Both the position numbers and the translations under genes were made by a program. Under the pieces are notes generated by a model. It did no database searches. It saw nothing but the letters and a program-made list of their open reading frames with translations, and was not told the DNA's origin. Below, piece by piece: positions 17,119 to 44,383 of a stretch of DNA of 64,000 nucleotides. Position 1 is the first letter of the stretch. Each line of letters begins with the position of its first letter. This DNA is from a virus: positions 64,001-128,000 of IMG/VR virus record IMGVR_UViG_3300035193_000067. One strand, written 5' to 3'.

Positions 17119-19596
17119 TTAGTTAGTGTAGAACGGATTATCGACACTATATTCACCGAAAAATCTCTTGGCTACGTACTTAAGATTGAACCAATATCTG
17201 AACACAAAACTACGAGGATCGTTCTCATCCTGGTACGCTTCAATATCTGTTAGCAAATCGATGTCACGTGTAGATCCGTTGGGATTTCTGTAAGTACCAA
17301 TATCTCTGTTTGAGATTGATCCTTTAATCGCAATGGAAATCCATGTTTTAATGTCAGTAATAAAATCTGCGAGATCATCAGGAACAACACCTTTTACATT
17401 CCCATCCAACGCCCTGGCAACCGCACGAGTAACAGCATCCTTCTGAGAAGAAGAGGAGATCTCTTCAAACTGTACAACTTTAGCCCCACCTGCTTCAGTT
17501 GTAAGAGGATCAATCAGAGTCAGGTTACCTGCTTCATTGGTCACAACAGTTACGCCATTACCTGCCAGAGTATAACGCTGACCTTGCAGATAAGTCTGAA
17601 AAGTGCTGTCAGTGAGGAATCCTGTAACAGTCTTGTTCAACAAAGCCTCTGAAGGACCTGAGAGGCTGCAGAATCTTGCAGCAACAGCTGTAGCAAGGTA
17701 ACTTCCATCAAGCTGTACAGTAACCTCTGTAGCGTCTTCCAGAACCAGTGTACGAGATACGTTGGCAGGAGCTACAAGGATCTGACGACCTCTACCGGAG
17801 GAAGTGTTACCTGGTTGAAGAGTTCTGGTAGCTCTATATACGAATGTATCAGGCGTATCAGGATCTCCAACAGCGGTATCACGTGCCATACCATACCAAC
17901 CACGACGATATTTCTTTTCAGTGATAGAACTCATGGAAGAAACATGATTCATCAGGTATACTGCCTGAGCTTCTGCGGTATCAATAACAACTAAATCAGT
18001 AATTCCGGATTTTTCACGACATACATCAATAGCTGCATTTACCTGTGAAGGAGTCGGGTACCCTGGAGCAGTTGAGTCATTAATCTGAGTGATGTACAGA
18101 GCAGAGATACCATTCTCAAAAGCAATCTCACCAGCTACAGCAAGCTCATTACGAGGGTAGTTGGCCAGAGTTAAAGGAGAGCAGTAATCATACAGCTGAT
18201 CAGGTGTGTAAACAATATTTGAAGTAGCGTAATCCGTGCTGGGGCGGGTATAATCATACGAGGAGTAGAACACTGTACCAAAGTTAGGACGGTTACCGGT
18301 ACCTGAGATTTCATAAGGGAGGGAGCTGGAAGCTATCCCGAAGATATCAGTTACACCAGAAGTGGTTCCTTCGAATAAAGAAATAGAGGATGCCGCACCT
18401 TTGGAAGAAGGTGTATCAGTAAACATTGCAGGAGCTGTCAGATTGACAGCAGAGCCACTTACTGAAGCAACATGACCATACAAAGGACCGTAAGAAGCAG
18501 ATGCAGTAAAAGCTGCATTAATATCAGCTACAACATCAGCAGCTGCAGGATTAGGGAGATTGGTGGTCAATGTGACAGTTATAGGATCGATGTTGTTGAA
18601 ACCTATTTTCAGATCTGTACCTGTTGCAGTAAAGACACCATCAAGTCCCGTAATAGTAGCATCCGTCCATGAAGTAGTATCCCAATCAAGATAATTGCCG
18701 TTAGCTTCATAGTCATAATTCTGAGTATAACTGGAAGATCCAGGATATGCACCAACAAACAGGATAGAGCTTAAAGGAGTTGCTGTAGCAGTGTTGGATA
18801 ATACATCAAGAAGCATATCCACAGCTACATAATCAATAGTGTAGGTATCAGACGAGCTGTACAGTGCGTCATTGACACGAACTACAGTAGAGGATTGAAC
18901 TCCTGCACCAGTAGTAGGAGCCCATGCAGTATTGGATACTTCAGAAGCAGCATCAGCAGCTGCAGGAGATGACAAAATAACCTTAATGTCAGAAGTTGAA
19001 TCAGTAGCTACCCCGTTAAGAGTAATAACCGGATACGTGACACCTGTAGCAGAAGAAGCAAATGCACTGTAGGAAGATCCATACAAAGGACTTGCAACCA
19101 AACCTGCATTAATGGCAGCAGCAATATTGGCACCACTTGCTGTAGCAGGAGTACCACCGACTGAAGTAACCAAGGCATCTAGATCCAGTTTAATGAAACC
19201 TTTATTATCTGCATTCAACGAAAGGTATTGAGCTGTTCCTGTTCCTGAAGATACGTCTATTGTTGCAGCAGCCCATTCATCGCCTACGAGAGTTGCAGCA
19301 ACAAAACTCCAATCACCAAGACCCAGTGCATTACTGTTCCTGTAAAGAACTGCCTGGGTACGATCTCGGTTGGAAGTATTGGAAAGAGTAGCTACATAAG
19401 GAGTGGAGGTTGAGAGAGTCAAAGACTCATTGTATACCTTACCTCGTACAATAGCTTCATCATTCGCTCTACGCGTCCGTGGTGCAATAGCAACAATACC
19501 CAGTGTTCTCTCTGATGTAATAGAGACAGCACCAGGCTGTACTTTTTCTCGAATATATGTTCCTGGGTCAACATACCCATTAACTCCAAAAGCCAT
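17119..19596 (-). CDS. Tail sheath protein with inserted accessory domains
   Basis: N-terminal YVDPGTYIRE; C-terminal YLATAVAA, LAGNGVTVV and FRYWFNLKYV-type sheath core; 825 aa. Confidence 0.9.
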   Translation of the reverse strand: MAFGVNGYVDPGTYIREKVQPGAVSITSERTLGIVAIAPRTRRANDEAIVRGKVYNESLTLSTSTPYVATLSNTSNRDRTQAVLYRNSNALGLGDWSFVAATLVGDEWAAATIDVSSGTGTAQYLSLNADNKGFIKLDLDALVTSVGGTPATASGANIAAAINAGLVASPLYGSSYSAFASSATGVTYPVITLNGVATDSTSDIKVILSSPAAADAASEVSNTAWAPTTGAGVQSSTVVRVNDALYSSSDTYTIDYVAVDMLLDVLSNTATATPLSSILFVGAYPGSSSYTQNYDYEANGNYLDWDTTSWTDATITGLDGVFTATGTDLKIGFNNIDPITVTLTTNLPNPAAADVVADINAAFTASASYGPLYGHVASVSGSAVNLTAPAMFTDTPSSKGAASSISLFEGTTSGVTDIFGIASSSLPYEISGTGNRPNFGTVFYSSYDYTRPSTDYATSNIVYTPDQLYDYCSPLTLANYPRNELAVAGEIAFENGISALYITQINDSTAPGYPTPSQVNAAIDVCREKSGITDLVVIDTAEAQAVYLMNHVSSMSSITEKKYRRGWYGMARDTAVGDPDTPDTFVYRATRTLQPGNTSSGRGRQILVAPANVSRTLVLEDATEVTVQLDGSYLATAVAARFCSLSGPSEALLNKTVTGFLTDSTFQTYLQGQRYTLAGNGVTVVTNEAGNLTLIDPLTTEAGGAKVVQFEEISSSSQKDAVTRAVARALDGNVKGVVPDDLADFITDIKTWISIAIKGSISNRDIGTYRNPNGSTRDIDLLTDIEAYQDENDPRSFVFRYWFNLKYVAKRFFGEYSVDNPFYTN

Positions 19597-23025: not shown

Positions 23026-23405
23026 TAATCACCCAGTACAATGAAAGTTACTACCGCCTGTGAGGAAGTTGCCTGCACTGTGGCTTCCGTAATGTTGCAT
23101 TTAGCAAGAAGAATGAAACCGCCAGCACCTATAGAGATCGTCTCAGCACCACCGTTTAAAATAACATCAACCGGAGCACTGGCACCGACATAGAATACTG
23201 ATCCTGAAGAGACTGTGCTCATGGGAAGAGATGTGGGAGAAGCTGTAGGGACACTAAGTGTCTGAGCACCTCCCTCAGCATACGTAATTGTAAGACCTGT
23301 TGTAGAGGAAGATCCTACGGCAGGAGATCCCAACAGAACACTTGAAGATGCACCGTCCTGCACGATTGGATAAGTAATACTACCTGTTATAGTTGATGTT
23401 GACAT
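23025..23405 (-). CDS. Small beta-rich probable virion protein
   Basis: 126 aa, Ser/Thr/Gly-rich, translationally coupled within the structural operon. Confidence 0.5.
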   Translation of the reverse strand: MSTSTITGSITYPIVQDGASSSVLLGSPAVGSSSTTGLTITYAEGGAQTLSVPTASPTSLPMSTVSSGSVFYVGASAPVDVILNGGAETISIGAGGFILLAKCNITEATVQATSSQAVVTFIVLGD

Positions 23406-23860
23406 TAATCAGCTCCTTGCAGCCCATATGAGAGACCTATTGCCAAGAGTCCCCCTGATATTATACCTACTATAAATAAAAATGATGGTGATTTATACCA
23501 TCTACTGTTTTCATTTAAAGATTGCCTGTACCGCTCTTCCAGTGCATCATAGTTCTTTTCGGACTTTCCCAAAGCGTCTTCATACTTATCGGAGATCTTT
23601 TCTGAGACTGCCAATTGGACCTTGTACTTGGAAATAAGTATTTCCTGCAATCGTATTTTTGTATCCAACTCAGGGATCTTTTTCTCTCGGATTAATGAAA
23701 GCTCTGAAAGATCTTTCAGCATTAAATCAGTAGTAGGCTCATCAAACCAGTATCCAGGAACATCGTTATATACCAAATACGCTTTATTGGAGTAACCCAG
23801 AGAATTCACAGAGAACAATGAAAACAACAACAGTAATACAACTGATACTACTTTCTTCAA
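23405..23860 (-). CDS. Spanin-like protein (signal peptide, coiled coil, C-terminal hydrophobic helix)
   Basis: MKKVVSVVLLLLFSLF signal, heptad region, terminal FLFIVGIISGGLLAIGL; no lipobox Cys. Confidence 0.45.
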   Translation of the reverse strand: MKKVVSVVLLLLFSLFSVNSLGYSNKAYLVYNDVPGYWFDEPTTDLMLKDLSELSLIREKKIPELDTKIRLQEILISKYKVQLAVSEKISDKYEDALGKSEKNYDALEERYRQSLNENSRWYKSPSFLFIVGIISGGLLAIGLSYGLQGAD

Positions 23861-24210
23861 TACCCCAGCTCCTCAAATTTATCCAGTTTTTGATCAAAGT
23901 CCATGGACTCAATCTCTTTATTGGTTTTAACGATCTCCTGATCTACTTCTGAAATGTTGGCATCGGTTTCCTTTAAAGAACCCTCAACCTCAATTATCTG
24001 CTCCTGTAGCGCTTCCTTATAACCTTTAAGATGCTCAGCCTCCTGAAGGTCCTCAGATATACCATTAGGCTTCTCAAAATCTACTGGAGGTAATATATCT
24101 TTTCTCTTAAATAAAGCAAACAAAACAACTGCCGCAACGCTGATAGCAGATAAAACAACTACAACATGATCAGACAACCATTCATATACTCTTTTTAAGA
24201 CAGTCTTCAT
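23857..24210 (-). CDS. i-spanin (Rz)-like protein
   Basis: Single N-terminal TM followed by a coiled coil; next to the holin-like gene. Confidence 0.5.
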   Translation of the reverse strand: MKTVLKRVYEWLSDHVVVVLSAISVAAVVLFALFKRKDILPPVDFEKPNGISEDLQEAEHLKGYKEALQEQIIEVEGSLKETDANISEVDQEIVKTNKEIESMDFDQKLDKFEELGY

Positions 24211-24518
24211 TTTTTAGACTCGATCTTTTTCTCTATTGAAGCTTTTTTTGCAATGGTAACGGTAACAGTTTTATAAATCAGAAGATTCAAGCAACCCAAG
24301 CCACCACCTACCAAAAGCTTATCACCTAAAGAGTCCTCCGGAAGAAGAAGTCCACCAGCAGCTCCAAGTATTACAGGAAGGAAGTGGATAACCCGAAGAC
24401 CATTAACGGTATGAAAAAAATCAAACCTTGACTTTAAACCGTTGACAATAAAATGAACAATAACAGGGAGAAATATATAAGGACCAAAATCCTTAAAAAT
24501 GCTTACCAGTTCACTCAT
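24207..24518 (-). CDS. Holin-like membrane protein
   Basis: 103 aa, three hydrophobic segments, basic C-tail KKASIEKKIESKK. Confidence 0.6.
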   Translation of the reverse strand: MSELVSIFKDFGPYIFLPVIVHFIVNGLKSRFDFFHTVNGLRVIHFLPVILGAAGGLLLPEDSLGDKLLVGGGLGCLNLLIYKTVTVTIAKKASIEKKIESKK

Positions 24519-24529
24519 AACACACTCCT

Positions 24530-24976
24530 TTAAACGTTTGAACTTAAAACTTCAGTGATAAAAATCACCTCAACAGGCATATCCACCGTATCTGTGTTTT
24601 TAAATTCTACAACAACAGGATAACCGTTGAGATCTACCGATTTACCTGGGACATTTGCAGGAAGAATACCTGTACCTGAATAGATAGTATATGCAGCCTC
24701 AGATGTGCTGGTGCCGACTGCAGCCGCAGCCGCCTGACTGATACCTCCTACATGAATAGAGTCAACAGCGTAGGCAGAAACCTTGTTACCTGACACATCC
24801 GTAAAGTAACCCCCAAAGAAAACTTCCCTGGAAAGCTTGGTTGCATCCACTCCAACGGACCTAACAAGGATGGTTAGATTCTTAACCGGAGCAGAATATG
24901 TATTATCCCAAACACGATAAGCACCACCACCTGTAGGCACGCTTACATTTTTGACAGTCTGATTAAATTGAGGCAT
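24530..24976 (-). CDS. Probable virion structural protein
   Basis: 148 aa, beta-rich; AGGAG RBS; late-type motif upstream. Confidence 0.5.
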   Translation of the reverse strand: MPQFNQTVKNVSVPTGGGAYRVWDNTYSAPVKNLTILVRSVGVDATKLSREVFFGGYFTDVSGNKVSAYAVDSIHVGGISQAAAAAVGTSTSEAAYTIYSGTGILPANVPGKSVDLNGYPVVVEFKNTDTVDMPVEVIFITEVLSSNV

Positions 24977-25007
24977 TTAGTCTCCTAAATAAAAGGTCAA
25001 CAATAAT

Positions 25008-25033
25008 AGTATAACAGCACGTATGTAGGGATA
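25008..25033 (-). promoter_or_regulatory. Putative late promoter TATCCCTACA-N10-TATACT
   Basis: Copy of the recurrent motif upstream of 24530..24976. Confidence 0.55.
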
Positions 25034-25046
25034 TTAAAGTGAGGAA

Positions 25047-25856
25047 CTATTCAGTGAGGTGCTTGAGAGCAAAGTCTTTAACTGTCGGATATCCTGCATT
25101 GCTGGCAAGGTACTCCCAGTCAAGATCCTTCAGATCAGATTCAATAGTTTCAATTTCATCGATCATGTCACGAGCTTTAATTCTATCCGCACCCTGGTCT
25201 TTTTCAGATCTCAGGCACAAACCTACTACACGAGGATCAGGCTCATTTGCATTCAGAATTTTCTCTTCCTTGGAAACTTCTTCATCTTCTTCAGGCTTAG
25301 CATCAGAAACAGATCTCCTGTTCATCAGTGCCGAAAATTTATCCTGTGCATTCATCATCTCTTCTTCGGCAGATGTACCAAACCGCTTAGCCAATTTTTC
25401 AAAATAATCATAATACTCTTCCTCAGATACGAGTCGAAGGATTGAAGGTTTGCGGTTAATCATTGCGCGTAATTCCATAGAACCTTTAATACCGTCAAAT
25501 GGTACAAACTGAGTCAGATTCATAGGATGCTTAACCCTGGGGATGTTGATAAAAATAGGCTCGCCCTCATATTTACAGGTTATTGAGATATTGGTAGTAC
25601 CCAGGTTCTGAATATAGATCTCAGATTCTTCCTCAAAGAGTTTAGTCCAGTTGGTTACAAAGCTGTTAGCGTTTTTTGTCTGTCGTTTAATCATTGTTTC
25701 ACTCTCAATTTCTCCAGCATGCTTTAGCATGAAGGGTTTTTTGCTGAAGACAGTACACTTGCCTGTTTTCAGCAGCATTCTTGCTTTGGCCGGTGATGTT
25801 TTTGAGATAAACTGATTATTTTGATCCAGAACTGGTACAGTTTTATCTGTGGACAT
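25047..25856 (-). CDS. PLMP/RRXRR-domain protein fused to an unknown non-nuclease region
   Basis: Likely start MSTDK at 25856 (track starts at 25922). VPVLDQNNQFISKTSPAKARMLLKTGKCTVFSKKPFMLK resembles the IscB/IsrB N-terminal PLMP domain; no RuvC or HNH motifs follow. Confidence 0.7.
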   Translation of the reverse strand: MSTDKTVPVLDQNNQFISKTSPAKARMLLKTGKCTVFSKKPFMLKHAGEIESETMIKRQTKNANSFVTNWTKLFEEESEIYIQNLGTTNISITCKYEGEPIFINIPRVKHPMNLTQFVPFDGIKGSMELRAMINRKPSILRLVSEEEYYDYFEKLAKRFGTSAEEEMMNAQDKFSALMNRRSVSDAKPEEDEEVSKEEKILNANEPDPRVVGLCLRSEKDQGADRIKARDMIDEIETIESDLKDLDWEYLASNAGYPTVKDFALKHLTE

Positions 25857-25951
25857 TTTCCAGCCTTCGCTGATCTCTCCAAAAAAGGAGGTTAAATAGA
25901 GACCTCCCGGTTTGAGGTGCATTATTGCATAGCCTTGGGAGGTTCTGTTTT

Positions 25952-25999
25952 AAAAAAGAGGGGAGGGTCACAAAAGGAGGCGAAAAGCAACCCTCCCCC
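25952..25999 (-). terminator. Rho-independent terminator after the major capsid gene
   Basis: GGGGGAGGGTTGC / GTGACCCTCCCCT stem followed by C and TTTTTT. Confidence 0.75.
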
Positions 26000-26012
26000 A
26001 AAAAGCTAATGA

Positions 26013-27179
26013 TTATTTGGAACCTTTAGCAACACGGCGACCATCAGGAAGACCGAAGCCTACCATCTCAGTAAACATCCAACCCTTAACGGTTTCACCC
26101 AGAGCATACTTATTGTACGGCTCGCTGAAAAGCTCAATACGCTCACCCATAACACCGAGGTACTCAGGAGAAGTACAAGCATAGAAAGTACCGCTGGGGA
26201 TAACTTCCTGTACGCCAGTACCGGCAGCAGTCAGAATTTGAGCATTCATGATGTTACCAATGTAACCAGACAGCAACAGTTCACGCTCAGTAACCGGATC
26301 AACAGCAGAAGACATGGTTTTAACGATGTCAGAAAGCTCAGAACGGTTAATCAGGAACTGCTCCACCATCAAGCGGTGACGCTCTACCTGGTAACGTACA
26401 TCTTCAAAAGCACCAATACCCAAAGTACTGAAAGTGGTTTCGGTGTTTATAGCAGTGGAAGCAGCATCAAGAGCATTGATAGCAGCTTTGTCTTCCTGCA
26501 ATTCGATTTCCTGACGAGCTGTATCCTGAGCTCTTTCCAGGATGTCAAAATTAGCCTGATAGATGTCAACGATGTCTACAGGAGCAAAAGACGTAATTTT
26601 GAATTCTTCCGGAGTAATGTAGTTGGTTTTGATCCGTGATTCAGGAGTTTGACCATCCTGACCGATGATGTAGGCAACCGCACGAACATCCTTCGGAATT
26701 CTGAACAATTCAGCCTGTCCCAGTTTACGAGGCATGAAAATTCTGCGAGCAAAACCTTCATAGTCCAGGATAGCTTTGATCGGAAGAGAAAGCTCTTGAC
26801 CAATGCGATGGAAGCCACGACCACTCGGATCCTGAATAGCAGCTGTCAGTGCACGTCGTTGCTGCTCAAAAGAGGCTTCAACTTTGGAGGAAGTACGCAC
26901 CATTTGAAGACTGGAAGCGTTCTTTTTCGTTACATCGTTCAAGAGATGAGCAACCTGTTGCAGAACGTCTTTTTTGTCATATGCATTGACTTCACCCTTC
27001 GTATCAAACATACGATTGGCAGTTTTGGCAGCTTTATAACGAGTAGGGTTAAATTCCCCACTGGGATCATAAAGACTCTCTTCTCTTTTCGAAGAAACTT
27101 TTTTAACCGGTTTTACACGCATACGGCTAGGAGCTGTCTTCGAAGCACTCTTACGGAAAGGATTTTTCGTATTCTTCAT
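26013..27179 (-). CDS. Major capsid protein (HK97 fold, basic N-terminal extension)
   Basis: 388 aa after protease, scaffold and decoration genes; LDYEGFARRIF, EIELQEDK and KGWMFTEMVGF capsid-like segments; AGGAG RBS; followed by a terminator. Confidence 0.88.
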   Translation of the reverse strand: MKNTKNPFRKSASKTAPSRMRVKPVKKVSSKREESLYDPSGEFNPTRYKAAKTANRMFDTKGEVNAYDKKDVLQQVAHLLNDVTKKNASSLQMVRTSSKVEASFEQQRRALTAAIQDPSGRGFHRIGQELSLPIKAILDYEGFARRIFMPRKLGQAELFRIPKDVRAVAYIIGQDGQTPESRIKTNYITPEEFKITSFAPVDIVDIYQANFDILERAQDTARQEIELQEDKAAINALDAASTAINTETTFSTLGIGAFEDVRYQVERHRLMVEQFLINRSELSDIVKTMSSAVDPVTERELLLSGYIGNIMNAQILTAAGTGVQEVIPSGTFYACTSPEYLGVMGERIELFSEPYNKYALGETVKGWMFTEMVGFGLPDGRRVAKGSK

Positions 27180-27194
27180 AACATTATCTCCTTA

Positions 27195-27983
27195 TTAGCC
27201 GAAGTACTTAATGCCCAGGAAGGGGTCATCAGCAGTTGGAAGTTGGATTACCCGACCAATTACAACAGTGTTGGTAGAGTCAGTTGTACGGTCAAAAAGA
27301 CCACCACAGTAATCAGTAGTAGCATCACCAGGAGATACGCTATCATTGATAGCCCATGCACGTGCAGCATTGTACTGAGTAGTGAAAATAGTAGCTTCGC
27401 CTTCAATTACAGTAACTTTTCCGCCCTGAATAGTAACATCATCTTGGTAATTCCAGAAGTTAGCACCATTAGCCAGAAGCTCTACAGCAGAAAGAGTTCT
27501 CATGTACCAGGCATATACTGTAGTTGCTGTAGGAATGGAGCCACCACCAACATGAGTAACTACGCCAGTAGAAGATACATACGTAAAATCAGTAGTCTCT
27601 GTGTAAGTAGTACCTACACCCGCTGCATCGGAGGTGATGCGAAGACCGCCTGTATTAGCAGTCGCACCATGATCAACAAGCGTTGTGTACTTCAGAGTAG
27701 CAGTGCCACCAGAGGTAGCGAACTGAATCGGCTCAGCACTGACCATGGCTGTAAAAGAGGTCTTTTTGTTGTATTTTGTGATACCGAAAGGACGTGTATC
27801 CGTACCAGGATGTACAACAACCTGACCACTGGTGTTAAGAGAAACAGGCATACCTGCTTCAAAAGTTGTGCTGGGAGCCGCAACACGATTCCCGTAAGCC
27901 CGCAGATAATCGGTACGCTGGTGGTCCAAGCCCCGAGCGATAGTATCTACTCTGAAAGCTTCTCTTTTTGTCGATAGAGTCAT
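27195..27983 (-). CDS. Capsid decoration/cement protein
   Basis: Directly upstream of the capsid gene; FEAGMPVSL, GKVTVIEG and IGRVIQLP..LG decoration-like pattern. Confidence 0.65.
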   Translation of the reverse strand: MTLSTKREAFRVDTIARGLDHQRTDYLRAYGNRVAAPSTTFEAGMPVSLNTSGQVVVHPGTDTRPFGITKYNKKTSFTAMVSAEPIQFATSGGTATLKYTTLVDHGATANTGGLRITSDAAGVGTTYTETTDFTYVSSTGVVTHVGGGSIPTATTVYAWYMRTLSAVELLANGANFWNYQDDVTIQGGKVTVIEGEATIFTTQYNAARAWAINDSVSPGDATTDYCGGLFDRTTDSTNTVVIGRVIQLPTADDPFLGIKYFG

Positions 27984-28006
27984 ATCTCTCTCCTCATAGG
28001 CTAGTC

Positions 28007-29734
28007 CTAGCGCTGCCCCTTGTTGAGCGTAGCGAGTTTAACTGCACGCTGGCTCAACGAAGTGCTTCCGACAACTGAGCGGATACTGCCATCTTCTTTG
28101 GTGTTATTAAAGCTCGAAGCAGGAGCTTTTATTTGCATATTAAAATTTCCATCAACAGCTTCCTTACGAGCTGTTTTGGCTGTTTTTGATTTTGAAGAGG
28201 ATTTGGAAAAAGCAGAAGCTTCTACAGGACGTACATTTTGAATTTCAAGATCTTTTTCAATATCGTTACGGTAGTCACTGGATCTCTTCATGAGAGAAGA
28301 AGTACGATTGAGAAGCTGTTCAATAAACGCAGTATGACCTGCACTTGCAATCATCTCTGCCAACTCTGCAGCATCATCCTCATCCATGTCTGAAACTACT
28401 TCATCATCTGTTAGTACATCAAAAGCAGCAATTTTAAACTGGTGCTCATCGTGATTCAGAAGCATACGTGTAGCAGCAATCTTAAAGGATTGAATGAAGT
28501 CAGCTACGAATTTCGTGTTCAAGTCTCTGGCTTCTTTTGTAGCACGACTCTTATACAGCTCTTTAAGGTTAGCCTCTACTGTAGAGTAATCAACTTCAGC
28601 AGCGTCCTGAGTGCTCTCATGAGATGCAGGCATTGCCTCATCAGTTACATCCTCTGCACCATCAAGAACTGAAGAAGGTGTAGCGTCTACTGCTTCATCA
28701 GTGGTTAAATCAACACCCTCATCAACTCCACCTGATTTGTGATTCTCTTTGGAATCAAACTCAGCTTGTGCATCAACAGAATCTGTAGAAGGAGTTTTTA
28801 CTTCCTTAGTATCCGACTCAGCAGAATCAGTTACAGGAGCAGTCACTTCAGGGACTTCAGCATCAGCTGCTAAATCAACACCTTCATCAACTCCACCGAT
28901 AATAGAAGTACCACATTTCTGTGCCGCAGTTTTCAACCCATCAAAAGCGCACCAGGAAGCCACTTTATTAGCTTCACGAGCCAGAGCTTTATCATTACTG
29001 CGAACAGACTCAGAGGCAGTATGAAGGAATACAGGTTTACCTTCATAGGATACGAGGATGTTGCGATCTGCAGTAACTTTAACTCTAAGCTTGGATATAT
29101 CTATAGAACTCTTGATACCAAGAGATTCCGAAGAAGTGACGTCCTCTTCAGACTCATCTTCCTTCAGAGTCTCCAGATCCTCATCGGACTCTGTAGAAAT
29201 CTTCTTAGACCGTGCAATCAGGTCTTTTTTCTCCTCATCCATAGGCTTTTTAGGACCTTTACCAGGCATATCTTTTTTACCCTCAGGACCTTTTCCAGGA
29301 AGCTCTTTTTTATCTTCAAGACCTTTCCCTGGCATATCCTTTTTCATCTCAGGACCTTTTCCAGGTTTCACCTCTTCAGACTCTTCTTCCTCTTCAGACT
29401 CTTCAGACTCTTCAGACTTCTCAGGACCTTTAACAGGCTTCATCTCTTCAGATTTATCTTTAACAGAATCAGTATCAAGCTCCCCGCGATCCTTAAGAAA
29501 TGACAAAACAGCCTCAAACGCCTCATCGGCATTCTGAATGCCTTTCAGTTCGTTTAAAAGTTTGTCAAAACCTTCAGGAGCCTTGGAAGCTGTCCTGGCT
29601 GCGCTCAGCAACTCACGAGTCTCCTGCTCAATAATGCGTTGCTCTGCAGCAGTCAGAGTTACCGATCCTTTTGAATGAAGAGACTGTACTGTTTTCAATA
29701 GTTTCATCGTTTCTTTACCCATAAACAGCCTCAA
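28007..29734 (-). CDS. Capsid scaffolding protein
   Basis: Acidic, low-complexity, helical; between protease and capsid genes; probable start at ATG 29722. Confidence 0.65.
   Translation of the reverse strand: MRLFMGKETMKLLKTVQSLHSKGSVTLTAAEQRIIEQETRELLSAARTASKAPEGFDKLLNELKGIQNADEAFEAVLSFLKDRGELDTDSVKDKSEEMKPVKGPEKSEESEESEEEEESEEVKPGKGPEMKKDMPGKGLEDKKELPGKGPEGKKDMPGKGPKKPMDEEKKDLIARSKKISTESDEDLETLKEDESEEDVTSSESLGIKSSIDISKLRVKVTADRNILVSYEGKPVFLHTASESVRSNDKALAREANKVASWCAFDGLKTAAQKCGTSIIGGVDEGVDLAADAEVPEVTAPVTDSAESDTKEVKTPSTDSVDAQAEFDSKENHKSGGVDEGVDLTTDEAVDATPSSVLDGAEDVTDEAMPASHESTQDAAEVDYSTVEANLKELYKSRATKEARDLNTKFVADFIQSFKIAATRMLLNHDEHQFKIAAFDVLTDDEVVSDMDEDDAAELAEMIASAGHTAFIEQLLNRTSSLMKRSSDYRNDIEKDLEIQNVRPVEASAFSKSSSKSKTAKTARKEAVDGNFNMQIKAPASSFNNTKEDGSIRSVVGSTSLSQRAVKLATLNKGQR
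29240..29460 (-). repeat. Intragenic KK(D/E)(M/L)PGKGPE-type repeats and EES repeats in the scaffold
   Basis: Visible in the translation and as ggacctttt/gactcttca repeats in DNA; boundaries approximate. Confidence 0.7.
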
Positions 29735-30657
29735 ATTCCTGCAGATATGGCAAAGTTTATAGCCTTGGCCACAGATTCTGGAAGAATCCCTGCATTTTTG
29801 ATAGTGTATTTAATCAGCTCTTCCCTATCCTTATCTGTAAGAGATAAGGAAGAAGCAGCTTTTTGAATGCTTAGTAAGCCGTCCTGTATAACAGCCGTTT
29901 TATCTGCAGGATCTGCTACAGCAGACAGTTCCTGATAAACAGTACCAATGCAAAGCTCACCACCTAAACGGTAGGATCCATCAGGCATTTGGTATTCACG
30001 TTTTTGAAATTTATTGCGTACATGATCGCAGAACTGAAATGTGGTAGACGCTACATTTCCACAGACATTACACTGAGTTGCCTCAACATCTGCCCCCATG
30101 GAAAATGTACTAACACTGCCATTTTTGTACGCTGCAGCAAGCGCCTTATCTTTAGTAGTATCTACTGCAATCAATGTCTCGACAAAAACATCTTTTGCAG
30201 GATACGTACCGATGGTTTTGAACACTTCCTCCTGATCCTCAGGAGACGCATCATTATCAGCATTGATATGGGCATCCAGAAGGAAACCTCTGGAGACTTC
30301 TGGGTGTGCTGCATTATGTTCAACAAAATGTGGTTTATTGCGGTAGGTCTCATACGTGAGGCAACCCAACTCAGGACGGAATGCTTTTATTTCATCCCAG
30401 GTCCAACCATCCAGATTGGCATTTAAACGCCCTACAGAGTTGGCTCTGGCAGGTATAAGGAGGTAATCGGAAGGGTCTCTACTAATCCTGTAAGTATCAG
30501 CAACATGCTCAAGACGTTCTCCTAAAGAAAATGAGAGATCGCTTGACTGCTTGTTCATGAAATATGACTCAGCTTTGGATTTACTGGCAGACTTACGCCA
30601 TGAACCTGACGACAAGACTCCCATAAACTCTATTGATGCATATTTTCTAAAACTCAA
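29731..30657 (-). CDS. Prohead maturation protease
   Basis: FVEHN (His), FSMGADV (Ser), CNVCG..FCDH and ELSAVADPAD motifs; lies between portal and scaffold. Confidence 0.85.
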   Translation of the reverse strand: MSFRKYASIEFMGVLSSGSWRKSASKSKAESYFMNKQSSDLSFSLGERLEHVADTYRISRDPSDYLLIPARANSVGRLNANLDGWTWDEIKAFRPELGCLTYETYRNKPHFVEHNAAHPEVSRGFLLDAHINADNDASPEDQEEVFKTIGTYPAKDVFVETLIAVDTTKDKALAAAYKNGSVSTFSMGADVEATQCNVCGNVASTTFQFCDHVRNKFQKREYQMPDGSYRLGGELCIGTVYQELSAVADPADKTAVIQDGLLSIQKAASSLSLTDKDREELIKYTIKNAGILPESVAKAINFAISAGI

Positions 30658-32162: not shown

Positions 32163-33929
32163 TTATCCTATCGAAGGCTCTGAAGGAGTCTCCACTGTGT
32201 CACTCAAAGTACCCCCTGAATCAGAGTTACCTGGAGGAGTTGATACTTCGGACTTACCACCGTTTGAAGGAGGGGTGGATCCTGGAGGTTTAGCGCCGGA
32301 TCCTGCACTGCCAGGTGGTTTGGATCCTCCTGCGCCCTGCTGATCCTCCTGAGCCATTTCAGCACTCATAGTAGGACCGAGAACCTTCTCACGGATACGC
32401 TTCTGCTCCAGAAACTCTGCAGCTCTTTTCTCTTCTTCCTCTTTCCAATTAAGTCCAACAGCGCTACCAACAGTCTGAAGAGATACTTTGAACCCTAGGT
32501 TATTGAGTTGTGAAATAGCTGTCAGAAGGTCTGTATCAACTGTGGAATCCAATCTATTCTTCCAACGGATCTTAGGCTCAATGGACAAACCCATCTCCCT
32601 GGCTTCCTGTCCAGTGCGTTTAATACGAATCCTATGGTCTACTTCAGCTCTTGTGGACTTCTGCCAATCATTGATGTCAATGATTGGTTTGAAGAATTTT
32701 GGATATAGCCAAACACTCTCAAAGAACTGTCGCATACTAAGCAGTTTTCTCAGCAGGACCTGAATACCACTCTTAACCGCTGCAAAGGATGTGTCTCCGG
32801 AAAGAATAGATTTCGATAAACCTAATCCTACCAGTTTAATCTGCTCTATGGTACTCCATTCTCGATTGATCGAGATAGCCTGATTAGTATTACCCCAGGT
32901 CTCAAAATTGACTGCATAGTTTGTAGCAATCCATGTCTGAGGATCTATCTCAGCCTGATTGACCATCTCCAGGATATTTCGCTGCATATCAGGACCTGGA
33001 ATAAAACCTGTCTGAGAGTCTCCCATTTTGATTACCTTCAGAGGAGCTGCATGACGCCTGTAGGTGGCGATAGTGGACGCATAGACTGCATCCTCCACCA
33101 TATTAATCCGCCACAATCTGGAAGCCAGTGAGGTGCCTCTGACATCATACGGATGTAGTTTTCTGGGTATGAAGGTACAATTCAAAGGGCTAAGACGTAT
33201 TTTCTGATTGGACAGAACCTTGGACACAAACTCAGCAGGCAATGATCTGCGAATCTCCATTGACTCAGGAGTATTGTCCATTAACAGCTCTTTTAGAGAA
33301 TCCGGAGGAAGAAAGTACAACAAAGAATCTGCATTTAGCATGTAAGGATCAATAACATCAATGTAATCAGGATCATGAAAAGTTACCTTGTCCCAGATCC
33401 CTTTTTGGTTATTGAAAGTACAGTGAGGTGCAGCTTCCCCAACACCCAGAAACTCTGTAACCATATCCTGAAAGGTTCTTTGCAGATTTACGGTCTGAGC
33501 CATGTCCTCTAATTGACGTTTAATTGAGGAGTCCTGATCATTGGAGATAGTGATATCAAAATCACTTACCATCATTGTAGCATACATATCCACAGCAGTA
33601 CCGAACACAGGATCCATCTTGTAGAAGAGTCTCCAATATTTGGTAGCTTCACAACGATCATCAGGGTACCAGGGTCTGTCAGGAGAATCAAATTCAGGAA
33701 GATAAGGTTTCTGGGTATGAAACATAGAGTTTCCACCTGATCCAAAAGAAGAGGATCCGCCCCAGTAATTTGCCGTTTTATTATTGTAATCCATAAGACT
33801 GTAGCCTTCCGGTAAAGCTGATTTGGCAACCTCCCGTCTGATGTAGTCAGGGCTTGTTGACTCGCTTGAATGAGATGATAATGAATTCATCCTCTTTGAT
33901 TTTAAGAATGAATCAGACAGTCGTGACAT
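32163..33929 (-). CDS. Portal protein
   Basis: WRLFYKMDPVFGTAVD, RGTSL, RHAAP..VIK and QFFE..WLY motifs, Pro/Gly-rich tail; start at ATG 33929 by TAATG coupling (track 33962). Confidence 0.85.
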   Translation of the reverse strand: MSRLSDSFLKSKRMNSLSSHSSESTSPDYIRREVAKSALPEGYSLMDYNNKTANYWGGSSSFGSGGNSMFHTQKPYLPEFDSPDRPWYPDDRCEATKYWRLFYKMDPVFGTAVDMYATMMVSDFDITISNDQDSSIKRQLEDMAQTVNLQRTFQDMVTEFLGVGEAAPHCTFNNQKGIWDKVTFHDPDYIDVIDPYMLNADSLLYFLPPDSLKELLMDNTPESMEIRRSLPAEFVSKVLSNQKIRLSPLNCTFIPRKLHPYDVRGTSLASRLWRINMVEDAVYASTIATYRRHAAPLKVIKMGDSQTGFIPGPDMQRNILEMVNQAEIDPQTWIATNYAVNFETWGNTNQAISINREWSTIEQIKLVGLGLSKSILSGDTSFAAVKSGIQVLLRKLLSMRQFFESVWLYPKFFKPIIDINDWQKSTRAEVDHRIRIKRTGQEAREMGLSIEPKIRWKNRLDSTVDTDLLTAISQLNNLGFKVSLQTVGSAVGLNWKEEEEKRAAEFLEQKRIREKVLGPTMSAEMAQEDQQGAGGSKPPGSAGSGAKPPGSTPPSNGGKSEVSTPPGNSDSGGTLSDTVETPSEPSIG

Positions 33930-34462
33930 TACATATCCACCAAAACAGAAAGAACCTGCCATTGATAATTAGACAGCTTAAGATTATCGTAATTAATGTC
34001 CTTAATAGATATTTTCTCAAAGTCATAATCTGAATATCCTGAAATAGTATTTCTGTAATGCTCTTCTACAGACTTGAGATATTTTATAAAATCTGCATAT
34101 TCAGAATTTTCAGAGAAATCATTCTTTATTTTTAAAACTTCACCCTCATGCCCTGGTATAATCTTACCCAAACCTGTAGGATCTTTAACCAGATTTCCTT
34201 CAACATCCTTTTCAAGGTGATCGTCTTTAACAAGATCTATCAAAGATGACATGGATTTCTGATGCTCTTCAGAACTTTGAAGCTCCAACAACTCTTTTTC
34301 CACAGAAAGTATTTCCTGATAAGCTTCTCTCAAATTGAAGAGATTTTTAGACATGACAGTATTTGCTTCATACGTATACTGTACAGACTGTGTCAGCATA
34401 TCTGTAAAAAATAATTTTACTAAAGCTATAATATCGCTGTTTTTTATTTTCATTGAAAGCAC
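33929..34462 (-). CDS. Hypothetical protein
   Basis: 177-aa ORF coupled to the portal gene. Confidence 0.55.
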   Translation of the reverse strand: MLSMKIKNSDIIALVKLFFTDMLTQSVQYTYEANTVMSKNLFNLREAYQEILSVEKELLELQSSEEHQKSMSSLIDLVKDDHLEKDVEGNLVKDPTGLGKIIPGHEGEVLKIKNDFSENSEYADFIKYLKSVEEHYRNTISGYSDYDFEKISIKDINYDNLKLSNYQWQVLSVLVDM

Positions 34463-42214: not shown

Positions 42215-44383
42215 TCAGAATTTCTGACCAGGTCTGAAAAGAGTGGTATCAAAAGCATTCTGAGATGCGTGCAATTTCTTGATCACATCTCTTCTCCTGC
42301 CGGAGTCCAGTCGAGATACTACAGAGTCCTTGATAATTCTGTCAAGACCTATTACACATCTGGCAAGGTCATCAGATCCTCTACCTCGGACAGATCCCTT
42401 CTTCGGAGAGATCACACGAGTCAGATCAGAGGATCTTCCCAAACGCAGCAACTCAACCAGGACTACAGACTCCCCAGACATAAGCTCTTCAGGCGTCCCC
42501 ATCTGCAGAGCTCCTTCAGTAGTCAATCCTACCATATCCACAGGATCAGGAGGAAGCAGCTGCACCTTGTCTCCATACAGCTCCTGAATAAAATTCATGA
42601 AATCTGCTGACTTCAATGTCACTTTATTGGATTGTATCCCAAGATCTCGAATCCCCTGAATAAGCTGTGTTGAGTTCCACCTGTCGAATGCTACTGTAGC
42701 AATCTTCTGCTTCTTTTTGATCTCTTTAATGATATCCAATATACTATTAAAGTAAATCTCCCTACCTTTTGTAGGTACAATACGCATAGCCCAGTCAACC
42801 ACGGTTATAAGTTTGGCAAGATTCTCACCCTGTGAGAGAGCCTGCCCAGATCCTCCAGAGAGCATTCCACGTGCCATTGGGCAGTCAGGATCCATGTCCT
42901 CAGAACCTAACCTGACAGCTGTATCAGCAAAGCTTATGAAGCCTTCAGGAGCCTCTGAAGGTACTCTGATTTCAGGCATGCCCAGGTAGTGATCCGCATC
43001 CACATACTCAGGATGTCCTCCCGCAAGTGCAAAGCTGTCAAAGGTTTCCCCGGCATCTCCAAATATGTATAGCGGACTTTTGAAATTGTAGGGACAGTCT
43101 GCCACTGCTGCCCCGTCATAATGTTTACCTGTTTTATCGGTAATGTGCAGTTTTTCAAAAGTGACTGTAGGTTTCTTCTCGTGGTCAATACATTTCCAAA
43201 ATCTCAAAGGAGAATCAATAAGAGGTGTCTCAGCTGCCGGAGGATTTACACCAAAGTCACGCTCAGCACCTATTGCATCCTTTGCATACTCTTCATCGAA
43301 ATCTGCCCGAGTAAACTGAGGATTGAACTCCCAGGTAGGACCTTTCCAGTACAAGGTCTTCTTCAGAGCTCCTTGAGAAGCCTTGGCATACAGCTGCATG
43401 GCTGCATCGTCAATACTGATAGGACTGGTAACGTTGAGCATTATCCCGAAAAACTGAGGCAGCTGCATACGTCTGACAGCACCTCGGACAGTCTTTAAGG
43501 ACTGGTTAAGCACACGATACAGCTCCTGTGCAGAAGTTTTCGACTCTGTTACAGACAGACGGGAGAGCTCATCAATTCCTGCGAAGATCCTTGTCTTACC
43601 GGCAATACCGCCTGAGTTGCTGGACAACCTGTTAATACGCAACTGAAGATACTCATCAATTATTGCATCATCCAGCTCCTTGTATTTCCACAGACCAGTT
43701 TTACCAATCTGCTGAGATTCCAGATTGGTAATGTATGCAACAGCCTTGTTCATCCATGGAGAGTTGTTTCTCATGGATCGGAATTTTGCATAAATTGTGT
43801 CACGGGCCTGCATGGCTGTGGAAGCTGCAAAAGAAATCTCGAAGGTCTCACCCAGGGCCTGTCCAAGCATCCTGGGGATAGCATGCCTACCGCCTCTGGA
43901 AGCTATTACACGTAGGACATGCTCAATGTAACCTCCCATGTGAGCGCCAAAGAAGGACTTACCAGATCTCATGCCTGCGATGACAAGACCCTGATCGTAA
44001 TGAGTGACCATACCATCGTCAAGGAATTCATAGTAGGTTGTTCCACACTTGGGGCATTTGAAATCATTGTCTGCATCAGACCACTCAAGCAGTACTTCAG
44101 ACTCCAGGTACTCACGGCCTTTTCCCCAGGGATCTGCCGATTCAATGTCCTGAGGATTGCAAACCTTACAACGTAAATTGAAAAAGTCTCTGAGAAGCTG
44201 ATACTGTCGGGAATGCTGAAAAGTGGATGGTACATTCCAGTAGTCAGTACCTGTCACCCATTGAATAATGTTTGGAGCAAAAGTGCTTAGATATTGCTTT
44301 TCTTCGGCAAGCTGATCAGATCCGCCGATACGTGAATCAATTTGACTGGAAAGATCGTTGAGGAATTCTATGGAGGATTTCAT
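42215..44383 (-). CDS. terL: Terminase large subunit
   Basis: Walker A VIAGMRSGKS, Walker B FAGIDEL, nuclease motifs IFGDAG, FDRWNS and DDLARC. Confidence 0.92.
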   Translation of the reverse strand: MKSSIEFLNDLSSQIDSRIGGSDQLAEEKQYLSTFAPNIIQWVTGTDYWNVPSTFQHSRQYQLLRDFFNLRCKVCNPQDIESADPWGKGREYLESEVLLEWSDADNDFKCPKCGTTYYEFLDDGMVTHYDQGLVIAGMRSGKSFFGAHMGGYIEHVLRVIASRGGRHAIPRMLGQALGETFEISFAASTAMQARDTIYAKFRSMRNNSPWMNKAVAYITNLESQQIGKTGLWKYKELDDAIIDEYLQLRINRLSSNSGGIAGKTRIFAGIDELSRLSVTESKTSAQELYRVLNQSLKTVRGAVRRMQLPQFFGIMLNVTSPISIDDAAMQLYAKASQGALKKTLYWKGPTWEFNPQFTRADFDEEYAKDAIGAERDFGVNPPAAETPLIDSPLRFWKCIDHEKKPTVTFEKLHITDKTGKHYDGAAVADCPYNFKSPLYIFGDAGETFDSFALAGGHPEYVDADHYLGMPEIRVPSEAPEGFISFADTAVRLGSEDMDPDCPMARGMLSGGSGQALSQGENLAKLITVVDWAMRIVPTKGREIYFNSILDIIKEIKKKQKIATVAFDRWNSTQLIQGIRDLGIQSNKVTLKSADFMNFIQELYGDKVQLLPPDPVDMVGLTTEGALQMGTPEELMSGESVVLVELLRLGRSSDLTRVISPKKGSVRGRGSDDLARCVIGLDRIIKDSVVSRLDSGRRRDVIKKLHASQNAFDTTLFRPGQKF

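Follow-up and report, generated by a model that had tools for sequence, protein, structure and literature searches.

Immediately downstream of the major capsid protein gene of an uncultured large phage lies a gene whose product begins in the manner of an RNA-guided nuclease and continues without one, which raises the question of what an IscB-type N-terminus is doing on such a protein. To our knowledge, this N-terminal module, the PLMP domain, has been described only in the RNA-guided nucleases IscB, IsrB and IshB, where it is an accessory domain, and its role has been read mainly as that of a scaffold for RuvC and the omega-RNA. No description of a nuclease-free PLMP protein was found in the literature searched. 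The gene was analysed within a 64,000-nt stretch of DNA (the window) from a 163-kb IMG/VR record with an estimated completeness of 93%, and was compared with its relatives in other phages.

The gene, its PLMP domain and its core

The gene and the late module around it comprise the following features:

25047..25856, minus strand: coding sequence of the long isoform, 269 aa (PLMP domain plus core); stop codon at 25047-25049
25695..25856, minus strand: PLMP domain, residues 1-54; basic, pI 9.6
25692..25694, minus strand: internal ATG, Met55, at the PLMP/core boundary; probable start of a PLMP-less isoform, with a weak SD
25317..25661, minus strand: core middle domain, residues 66-180; four-stranded sheet plus helical hairpin, no known fold match
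25242..25316, minus strand: acidic low-confidence linker, residues 181-205; pI 4.4, pLDDT below 60 over residues 181-200
25050..25241, minus strand: C-terminal helical bundle, residues 206-269; generic helical matches only, Z at most 6.1
26013..27179, minus strand: major capsid protein gene, directly upstream of the PLMP-core gene
29731-30657: protease gene, late module
32163-33962: portal gene, late module
42215-44383: large terminase gene

Also within the late module, an acidic scaffold-like gene and then a 262-aa gene lie between the protease and major capsid genes, and the PLMP-core gene is followed by small genes and then by genes for an 825-aa protein and a tube-like protein. The neighbour had been named as the major capsid gene on inspection of the sequence, and its match to phrog_2522 (E 1.5e-56) bears this out. 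The ATG at 25856 is used as the start in relatives P0002 and P0003 as well; a 291-aa reading from the ATG at 25922 was rejected, its extension being non-conserved, situated inside an extra hairpin described below, and missing from the 89%-identical relative L080. Inside the head-tail module, at 23405-24518 on the minus strand, three consecutive small ORFs (103, 117 and 151 aa) carry hydrophobic membrane-type segments, one of them with a signal-like N-terminus and a hydrophobic C-terminal stretch; a role in lysis or at the membrane is possible for them.

Pfam, PDB-profile and structural matches agree that residues 5-55 form a genuine PLMP domain. Pfam RRXRR (PF14239) aligns with residues 7-54 over positions 1-48 of its 174-position profile, and its score of 29 bits (E 1.2e-6) exceeds the cut-off of 25; the peptide that a sequence-only reading of this DNA had quoted as an IscB-type N-terminus was found in place. 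NCBIfam guided_IscB (NF040563) matches the same N-terminal stretch only, at 46 of its 314 positions, and reaches 26 bits against a cut-off of 175. A profile built from 14 family members matched TbaIscB in the PDB at E 1.3e-9, with the residues N-P-L-M-P-T-H-P-A-K-A-R of the latter paired with n-k-f-l-S-n-T-t-p-A-k-a-R. The PLMP tetrapeptide itself is replaced by F-I-S-K, as had been pointed out; the family consensus is F-[LI]-S-x-T, and both prolines of the motif are gone.

In the full-length AlphaFold model, which was built from an 88-sequence alignment (pLDDT 88.5), residues 5-55 superpose on TbaIscB (9k30_A) with a Z of 8.0 and an rmsd of 1.9 Å over 50 residues at 44% identity, and four further IscB/IsrB structures superpose on the PLMP domain at Z 6.6-7.5. 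The best nine Foldseek matches in the PDB are all IscB or IsrB, so that the structural check proposed earlier for the N-terminal half came out in favour of the assignment. They are followed by the IF3 N-domains 1tif and 6o6d, which share a similar small alpha/beta fold, weakly (E 0.25-0.45) and with no relation in sequence; a likeness to IF3 has been reported for the PLMP domain of IsrB (PMC9581776).

The protein is split in charge, the core, of about 215 aa, being acidic (pI 4.9) and the PLMP part basic. The claim that the remainder of the protein carries neither RuvC nor HNH motifs stands: a Pfam search of the 269-aa protein at E <= 10 returned no family of either kind, and PHROG matches to 'HNH endonuclease' (E 0.14-0.18) are confined to the PLMP residues. 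The middle domain was modelled separately with a pLDDT of 91.9, and a fold search against the PDB with residues 62-185 alone gave no match at Z >= 5. Its likeness to a ribbon-helix-helix fold is a loose strand-helix-helix resemblance (Z 4.0-4.8, rmsd 7-8 Å) and was not relied on. A shape search of the ESM Atlas with this domain returned viral hypothetical proteins only, a language-model atlas search with the core gave no usable match, and no match to known head, decoration or neck proteins emerged from the PHROG and structure searches.

The core does have relatives in other large phages. Its residues 66-267 match phrog_17686 (E 1.1e-4), and structural matches in BFVD, at E 3.6e-9 to 2e-5, are proteins roughly 200-245 aa long in phages PaBG, Motura and BcepSaruman; a family profile, A2, finds PaBG gp154 at 2e-14 and Lu11 gp139 at 7.8e-6. 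PaBG gp154, Lu11 gp139 and Motura gp042, uncharacterised phrog_17686 proteins of about 220 aa, are thus homologous to the phage protein over residues 62-269, but possess neither the PLMP domain nor a hairpin leader and lie in recombination, replication or terminase surroundings. In PaBG and Lu11 the core-only gene is found two to three genes after a RuvC resolvase gene and adjoins primase, and in Motura it lies two genes past the large terminase; the PaBG paper says nothing on gp154. The blocks in PaBG (112347-114233, L045) and Lu11 (102551-104874, L100) consist of a RuvC-type Holliday junction resolvase gene, one or two small genes and the core gene, and have as neighbours a primase gene and one that bears the annotation 'CRISPR/Cas system associated'. 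Because these core-only genes sit elsewhere, the core is not bound to the head module across its full range. Placement in a core morphogenesis locus, as the sequence-only reading had it, therefore stands for the post-capsid genes described in the next section but not for the distant core-only homologues. Roles of the core in head assembly or in DNA handling may be considered as candidates only.

Conservation of the fusion and its internal start

An exhaustive profile search returned 206 cluster representatives at E <= 1e-3. Pfam RRXRR was seen in 54 of 88 aligned family members, and the PLMP domain is recognisable across members that share only 25-40% identity. Among 34 IMG/VR loci, the PLMP part is in frame and free of stops in 33, and a capsid gene lies immediately upstream in 32. 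Both the fusion and the post-capsid position are kept in L002 (49% identity) and in Virus Rctr197k (L001, KX853510.1; 30% identity), and their persistence in dozens of related phages answers the question, raised with the original observation, of whether the arrangement is conserved. The possibility that the N-terminus was a one-off transposon remnant did not survive, given the size of the family and the 33 loci with PLMP. The PLMP-core gene is a conserved late gene in a clade of large myoviruses. The Rctr197k homologue, a 380-aa open frame that begins with GTG, carries no annotation beyond a misc_feature 'similar to hypothetical protein', and the same is true of several neighbouring features. 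Two 402-aa members, P0059 and P0068, carry two tandem PLMP domains, and P0059 still follows a capsid-sized gene.

A figure of 40% of the family for core-only forms was discarded, since at the DNA level these forms are mostly artefacts of contig ends, miscalled starts or a split gene. The short form P0011 is cut by a contig end; in P0026, P0030, P0036 and P0042 the upstream DNA encodes the PLMP part in the same frame, and its start is likely a GTG or TTG, no in-frame ATG being apparent there; and the gaps upstream of P0033 and P0044 match the size of a PLMP domain. P0038 (L111) is a true split, in which a 65-aa PLMP ORF ends in TAA and is followed by a new SD and then by a 228-aa core ORF (L111:2791-3687). 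Because the PLMP ORF directly precedes the core ORF at this locus, the pairing of the two persists even when they are separate. The split locus adjoins genes for adenylosuccinate lyase and dCMP deaminase, with no capsid gene and no hairpin leader. Truly PLMP-less are L038 and P0035 (L006), along with the distant PaBG gp154, Lu11 gp139 and Motura gp042.

The PLMP part is under constraint at the protein level, as judged from its codons: relative to L080, 8 of 13 differences fall at third codon positions. Across the leader and the PLMP codons (25695-25897, minus strand, against L080:2461-2662) synonymous divergence is low, with 5 synonymous and 6 non-synonymous changes in the 54 PLMP codons and 33 and 9, respectively, in the next 77. 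This low synonymous change could reflect either constraint at the RNA level or a recombination boundary.

At the boundary between the two parts, the Met is kept in 81 of 84 PLMP-bearing cluster representatives, although the flanking residues vary. Of 35 distinct loci, 25 have a strong SD ahead of this Met (<= -6 kcal/mol to the anti-SD); among control codons taken from the same genes the share is 13%. This conserved internal SD and AUG probably give rise to a second, PLMP-less core isoform beside the long one. In the window, the SD before Met55 amounts to only -3.1 kcal/mol, and the ratio of long to short isoform may differ there for this reason. The suggestion that translation might instead begin downstream, at MIKRQ, was half right: the Met is conserved as a probable second start, but it is no alternative to the upstream one, the PLMP coding part being conserved as protein.

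Since a strong SD precedes the boundary Met, gene callers start at this position, and public gene calls do truncate the family at the internal SD and ATG (for example in L004, L110, L112 and L113). The true upstream start often has no in-frame ATG, GTG or TTG being likely, and lies behind RNA structure. As a consequence of this truncation, protein databases under-report the PLMP fusion.

The two-hairpin leader

Between the capsid gene and the PLMP-core gene, 156 nt fold into four elements, namely a hairpin with a U-run, an extra hairpin, and hairpins A and B, the last two of which belong to a conserved leader:

25951..25999, minus strand: terminator-like hairpin plus U-run; RNAfold gives a 13-bp stem followed by UCUUUUUU
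25902..25943, minus strand: extra hairpin, AACC-UCCC...GGGA-GG; phage-specific
25857..25897, minus strand: conserved leader RNA, 41 nt; covariance model R1, 36.2 bits
25890-25896, minus strand: leader UUUAACC
25877-25890, minus strand: hairpin A, CUCC-U6-GGAG, followed by GAGAU
25861-25872, minus strand: hairpin B, CAGC-GAAG-GCUG, ending 4 nt before the AUG

In the relatives that were folded, a hairpin in the post-capsid position likewise comes before the leader. The extra hairpin is an insertion relative to L080 and resembles a second AACC-stem-GGAGG unit; against Rfam it scores 26 bits with abiF, under the gathering score of 37. In the window, the only GGAG lies in hairpin A. Diverged relatives share the same plan, which consists of (U)UAACC, a hairpin A whose stem varies, GAGR, hairpin B (often with a GNRA-like loop) and UGG.

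A covariance model, R1, was built from 19 leaders. With filters off it gives a single match in the 64-kb window, at 36.2 bits, the next best being 11.3, and its matches come one to a locus, in every case just 5' of the family gene. Outside its seeds it finds the leader in the expected place in L065, L080, L083-L086, L088, L090, L092 and L112, some of which may duplicate seed sequences, and it matches weakly in L081, L082, L087, L091 and L110. Most PLMP-bearing relatives thus carry the leader just before the gene. Conversely, R1 has no match at the 5' end of the five PLMP-less homologues (L038, L006, PaBG, Lu11 and Motura), of which L038 is the sole control in a capsid-adjacent position; these genes have plain leaders with an ordinary SD, or overlap the preceding gene. 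Some nine PLMP-bearing loci (L001, L017, L029, L032/33, L035, L037, L106 and L111) also gave no significant R1 match, and in four of them the plan of the leader can be seen by eye. A second model, R2, yielded only insignificant matches at the expected sites in L110, L032 and L106, no stronger than noise, and was set aside. One further R1 match, weak at 16.7 bits (E ~0.03), lies in L002 at 19264-19313 on the plus strand, between the tail-tube gene and the next gene; the R1 scan of the 64-kb window found no counterpart to it.

The pairing in this element is maintained by changes on both sides of its stems. Over 29 leaders, aligned by fitting to the structure of the model itself, pairing holds in 87.8% of cells as opposed to 68.5% after shuffling, and 58 double-sided changes are observed as opposed to 24. 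None of 500 shuffles reached the observed value for pairing or for double changes, and slid controls were 34-60% paired. Furthermore, the stems contain G-U pairs on the mRNA strand, which speaks for structured RNA and against a DNA site.

Two other readings of the leader motif were tried and rejected. The heptamer UUUAACC is no general late promoter: it occurs 17 times in the window against 9.5 expected, with just one copy in a leader and no second R1 element. A loose DNA pattern for the leader was located before family genes in 13 of its 35 matches in IMG/VR, and the rest were chance matches without hairpin B; the pattern is thus too weak to serve as a test of specificity.

What the PLMP domain may bind

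Shared with IscB and IsrB are a PLMP domain that is homologous in sequence and fold to that of IscB, IsrB and IshB (PF14239; PDB 9k30, 8dmb, 7xht) and is likewise N-terminal, and tandem hairpins with an SD-like sequence directly in front of the ORF that encodes the domain. The PLMP domain of IsrB makes contact with SL7 and SL8, two tandem hairpins at the 3' end of the omega-RNA, and SL7 or SL8 holds the SD immediately before the isrB ORF, for which the authors suggest a part in the regulation of expression (PMC9581776). The PLMP domain of IscB similarly recognises terminal hairpins, mainly without sequence specificity (PMC9640706).

Beyond this, the differences from IscB, IsrB and IshB are extensive. 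The P-L-M-P tetrapeptide is replaced; RuvC, with the Arg-rich bridge helix that divides it, is missing, the Pfam match covering just 48 of 174 positions, and so are the HNH and TI domains. The locus has no 200-400-nt guide RNA, its upstream gap being 156 nt with 41 nt conserved, and an Rfam scan of 24000-28000 at E <= 1 returned no omega-RNA or HEARO, only the sub-threshold abiF. Instead of an IS200/IS605-type context, the gene has a fixed place between capsid and head-tail genes, and the fusion partner of its PLMP domain is an unrelated acidic phage domain, with RNA binding putative. With five of six defining features lacking, the phage protein is not an IscB, IsrB or IshB; what it shares with them is one homologous domain and, probably, the habit of binding RNA.

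We consider it a substantial possibility, a little short of even confidence, that the PLMP domain binds its own leader hairpins in the way that IsrB holds the SD-bearing terminal hairpins of the omega-RNA. An RNA partner is made plausible by the co-occurrence of the conserved two-hairpin leader with the PLMP domain; that this co-occurrence reflects binding is something that we infer by this analogy. The sequence-only reading is thus supported in part: the domain, the nuclease-free protein and the post-capsid place hold, whereas domestication from an OMEGA element, RNA binding and a virion role are candidate readings. In the mechanism that we propose, the PLMP domain would grip tandem hairpins A and B in the leader of its own mRNA, and the bound hairpins would keep the ribosome-binding site shut; the expected effect on the site follows from the position of the only GGAG within hairpin A and of the end of hairpin B just before the AUG. 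The long isoform would thereby limit its own translation, and the internal SD and AUG would also yield the core isoform devoid of PLMP.

Autogenous translational repressors occur in phages and in ribosomal operons, T4 gp32 and RegA being examples. The logic proposed here is the same as in those two proteins, namely a structured operator over the repressor's own ribosome-binding site, but there is no homology and the mechanism is in this case inferred. An operator-like overlap with the ribosome-binding site is seen in the window. In a second subgroup (for example L012, L031 and L011), by contrast, the hairpins lie roughly 20-30 nt upstream of a start with its own SD, and at that distance they do not cover the ribosome-binding site.

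The leader hairpins might instead be cis-acting elements that work independently of PLMP, as a 5' stabiliser, as a site of RNase processing past the capsid terminator, or as an SD-AUG bridging hairpin that sets a low level of translation, while the domain binds another RNA, DNA or protein. We regard this as possible, though not probable. The second subgroup would fit such a role, as would the several PLMP-bearing loci in which no copy is detectable; furthermore, since the leader always follows the capsid-gene hairpin, it may serve the processing or stability of the capsid-operon transcript rather than PLMP. However, the window contains no second copy of the element, which is specific to the PLMP-core gene; it is missing from the capsid-adjacent, PLMP-less L038 and from four other PLMP-less homologues, and the arrangement copies the known layout of PLMP domain, tandem hairpins and SD in IsrB. 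A different proposal, which we judge unlikely, would place the protein in the virion as a minor component, or in head assembly, with the PLMP domain tethering nucleic acid (packaged DNA or an RNA) inside or on the capsid and the long and short isoforms combined within a single assembly. The conserved position between the capsid and head-tail genes, the basic N-domain on an acidic core and the two isoforms to which the conserved internal start points are all in keeping with this, but core-only genes occur outside the head module (in PaBG and Lu11 near the RuvC resolvase and primase genes, in Motura past the terminase), the searches for known head, decoration and neck proteins were without a match, and no proteomic data were found.

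That the N-terminus is a decaying, functionless remnant of an inserted IscB- or IshB-type element, with only the core from Met55 being made, seems very improbable to us. While the loss of the PLMP tetrapeptide and the conservation of an internal start that gene callers favour would be expected of such a remnant, a decaying sequence is hard to reconcile with a domain that stays recognisable among members of 25-40% identity, is uninterrupted in 33 of 34 IMG/VR loci, survives as an ORF of its own in the split locus and differs from that of L080 at third codon positions in 8 of 13 cases; neither transposon features nor remnants of a nuclease are present. We give hardly any credence to the idea that the protein and an RNA act as an OMEGA-like ribonucleoprotein, guiding a nuclease provided in trans. 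PLMP domains do usually operate inside RNA-guided nucleases, and the core-only homologues of PaBG and Lu11 lie two to three genes from a RuvC resolvase, but the absence of an omega-RNA or HEARO match, a 41-nt element without a guide-like part, and a 163-kb record without a second RRXRR, a PF02075 RuvC or a PaBG-type resolvase match all argue against it. A PADLOC scan for defence families returned nothing.

What is new here is a conserved two-hairpin leader with compensatory changes and a conserved internal Met that suggests a PLMP-less isoform, both as read from sequence comparison. The PLMP domain has been kept over a long period of evolution without a nuclease, and beside a short RNA that resembles the part of the omega-RNA with which it makes contact. 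Some 55 aa and 40 nt thus constitute a minimal testable system for what the domain recognises, and bear on how the ancestors of Cas9 became tied to RNA encoded upstream of their genes. A broader proposal, which we ourselves hold to be rather doubtful, is that a PLMP domain and an SD-bearing hairpin pair may form a self-contained, portable module of translational feedback outside OMEGA elements. If it is true, then the PLMP domain may originally have served to grip hairpins before its own gene, and the partnership between IscB or IsrB and the omega-RNA could stem from an autoregulatory pair of protein and leader, or else phages could have lifted the module from a transposon.
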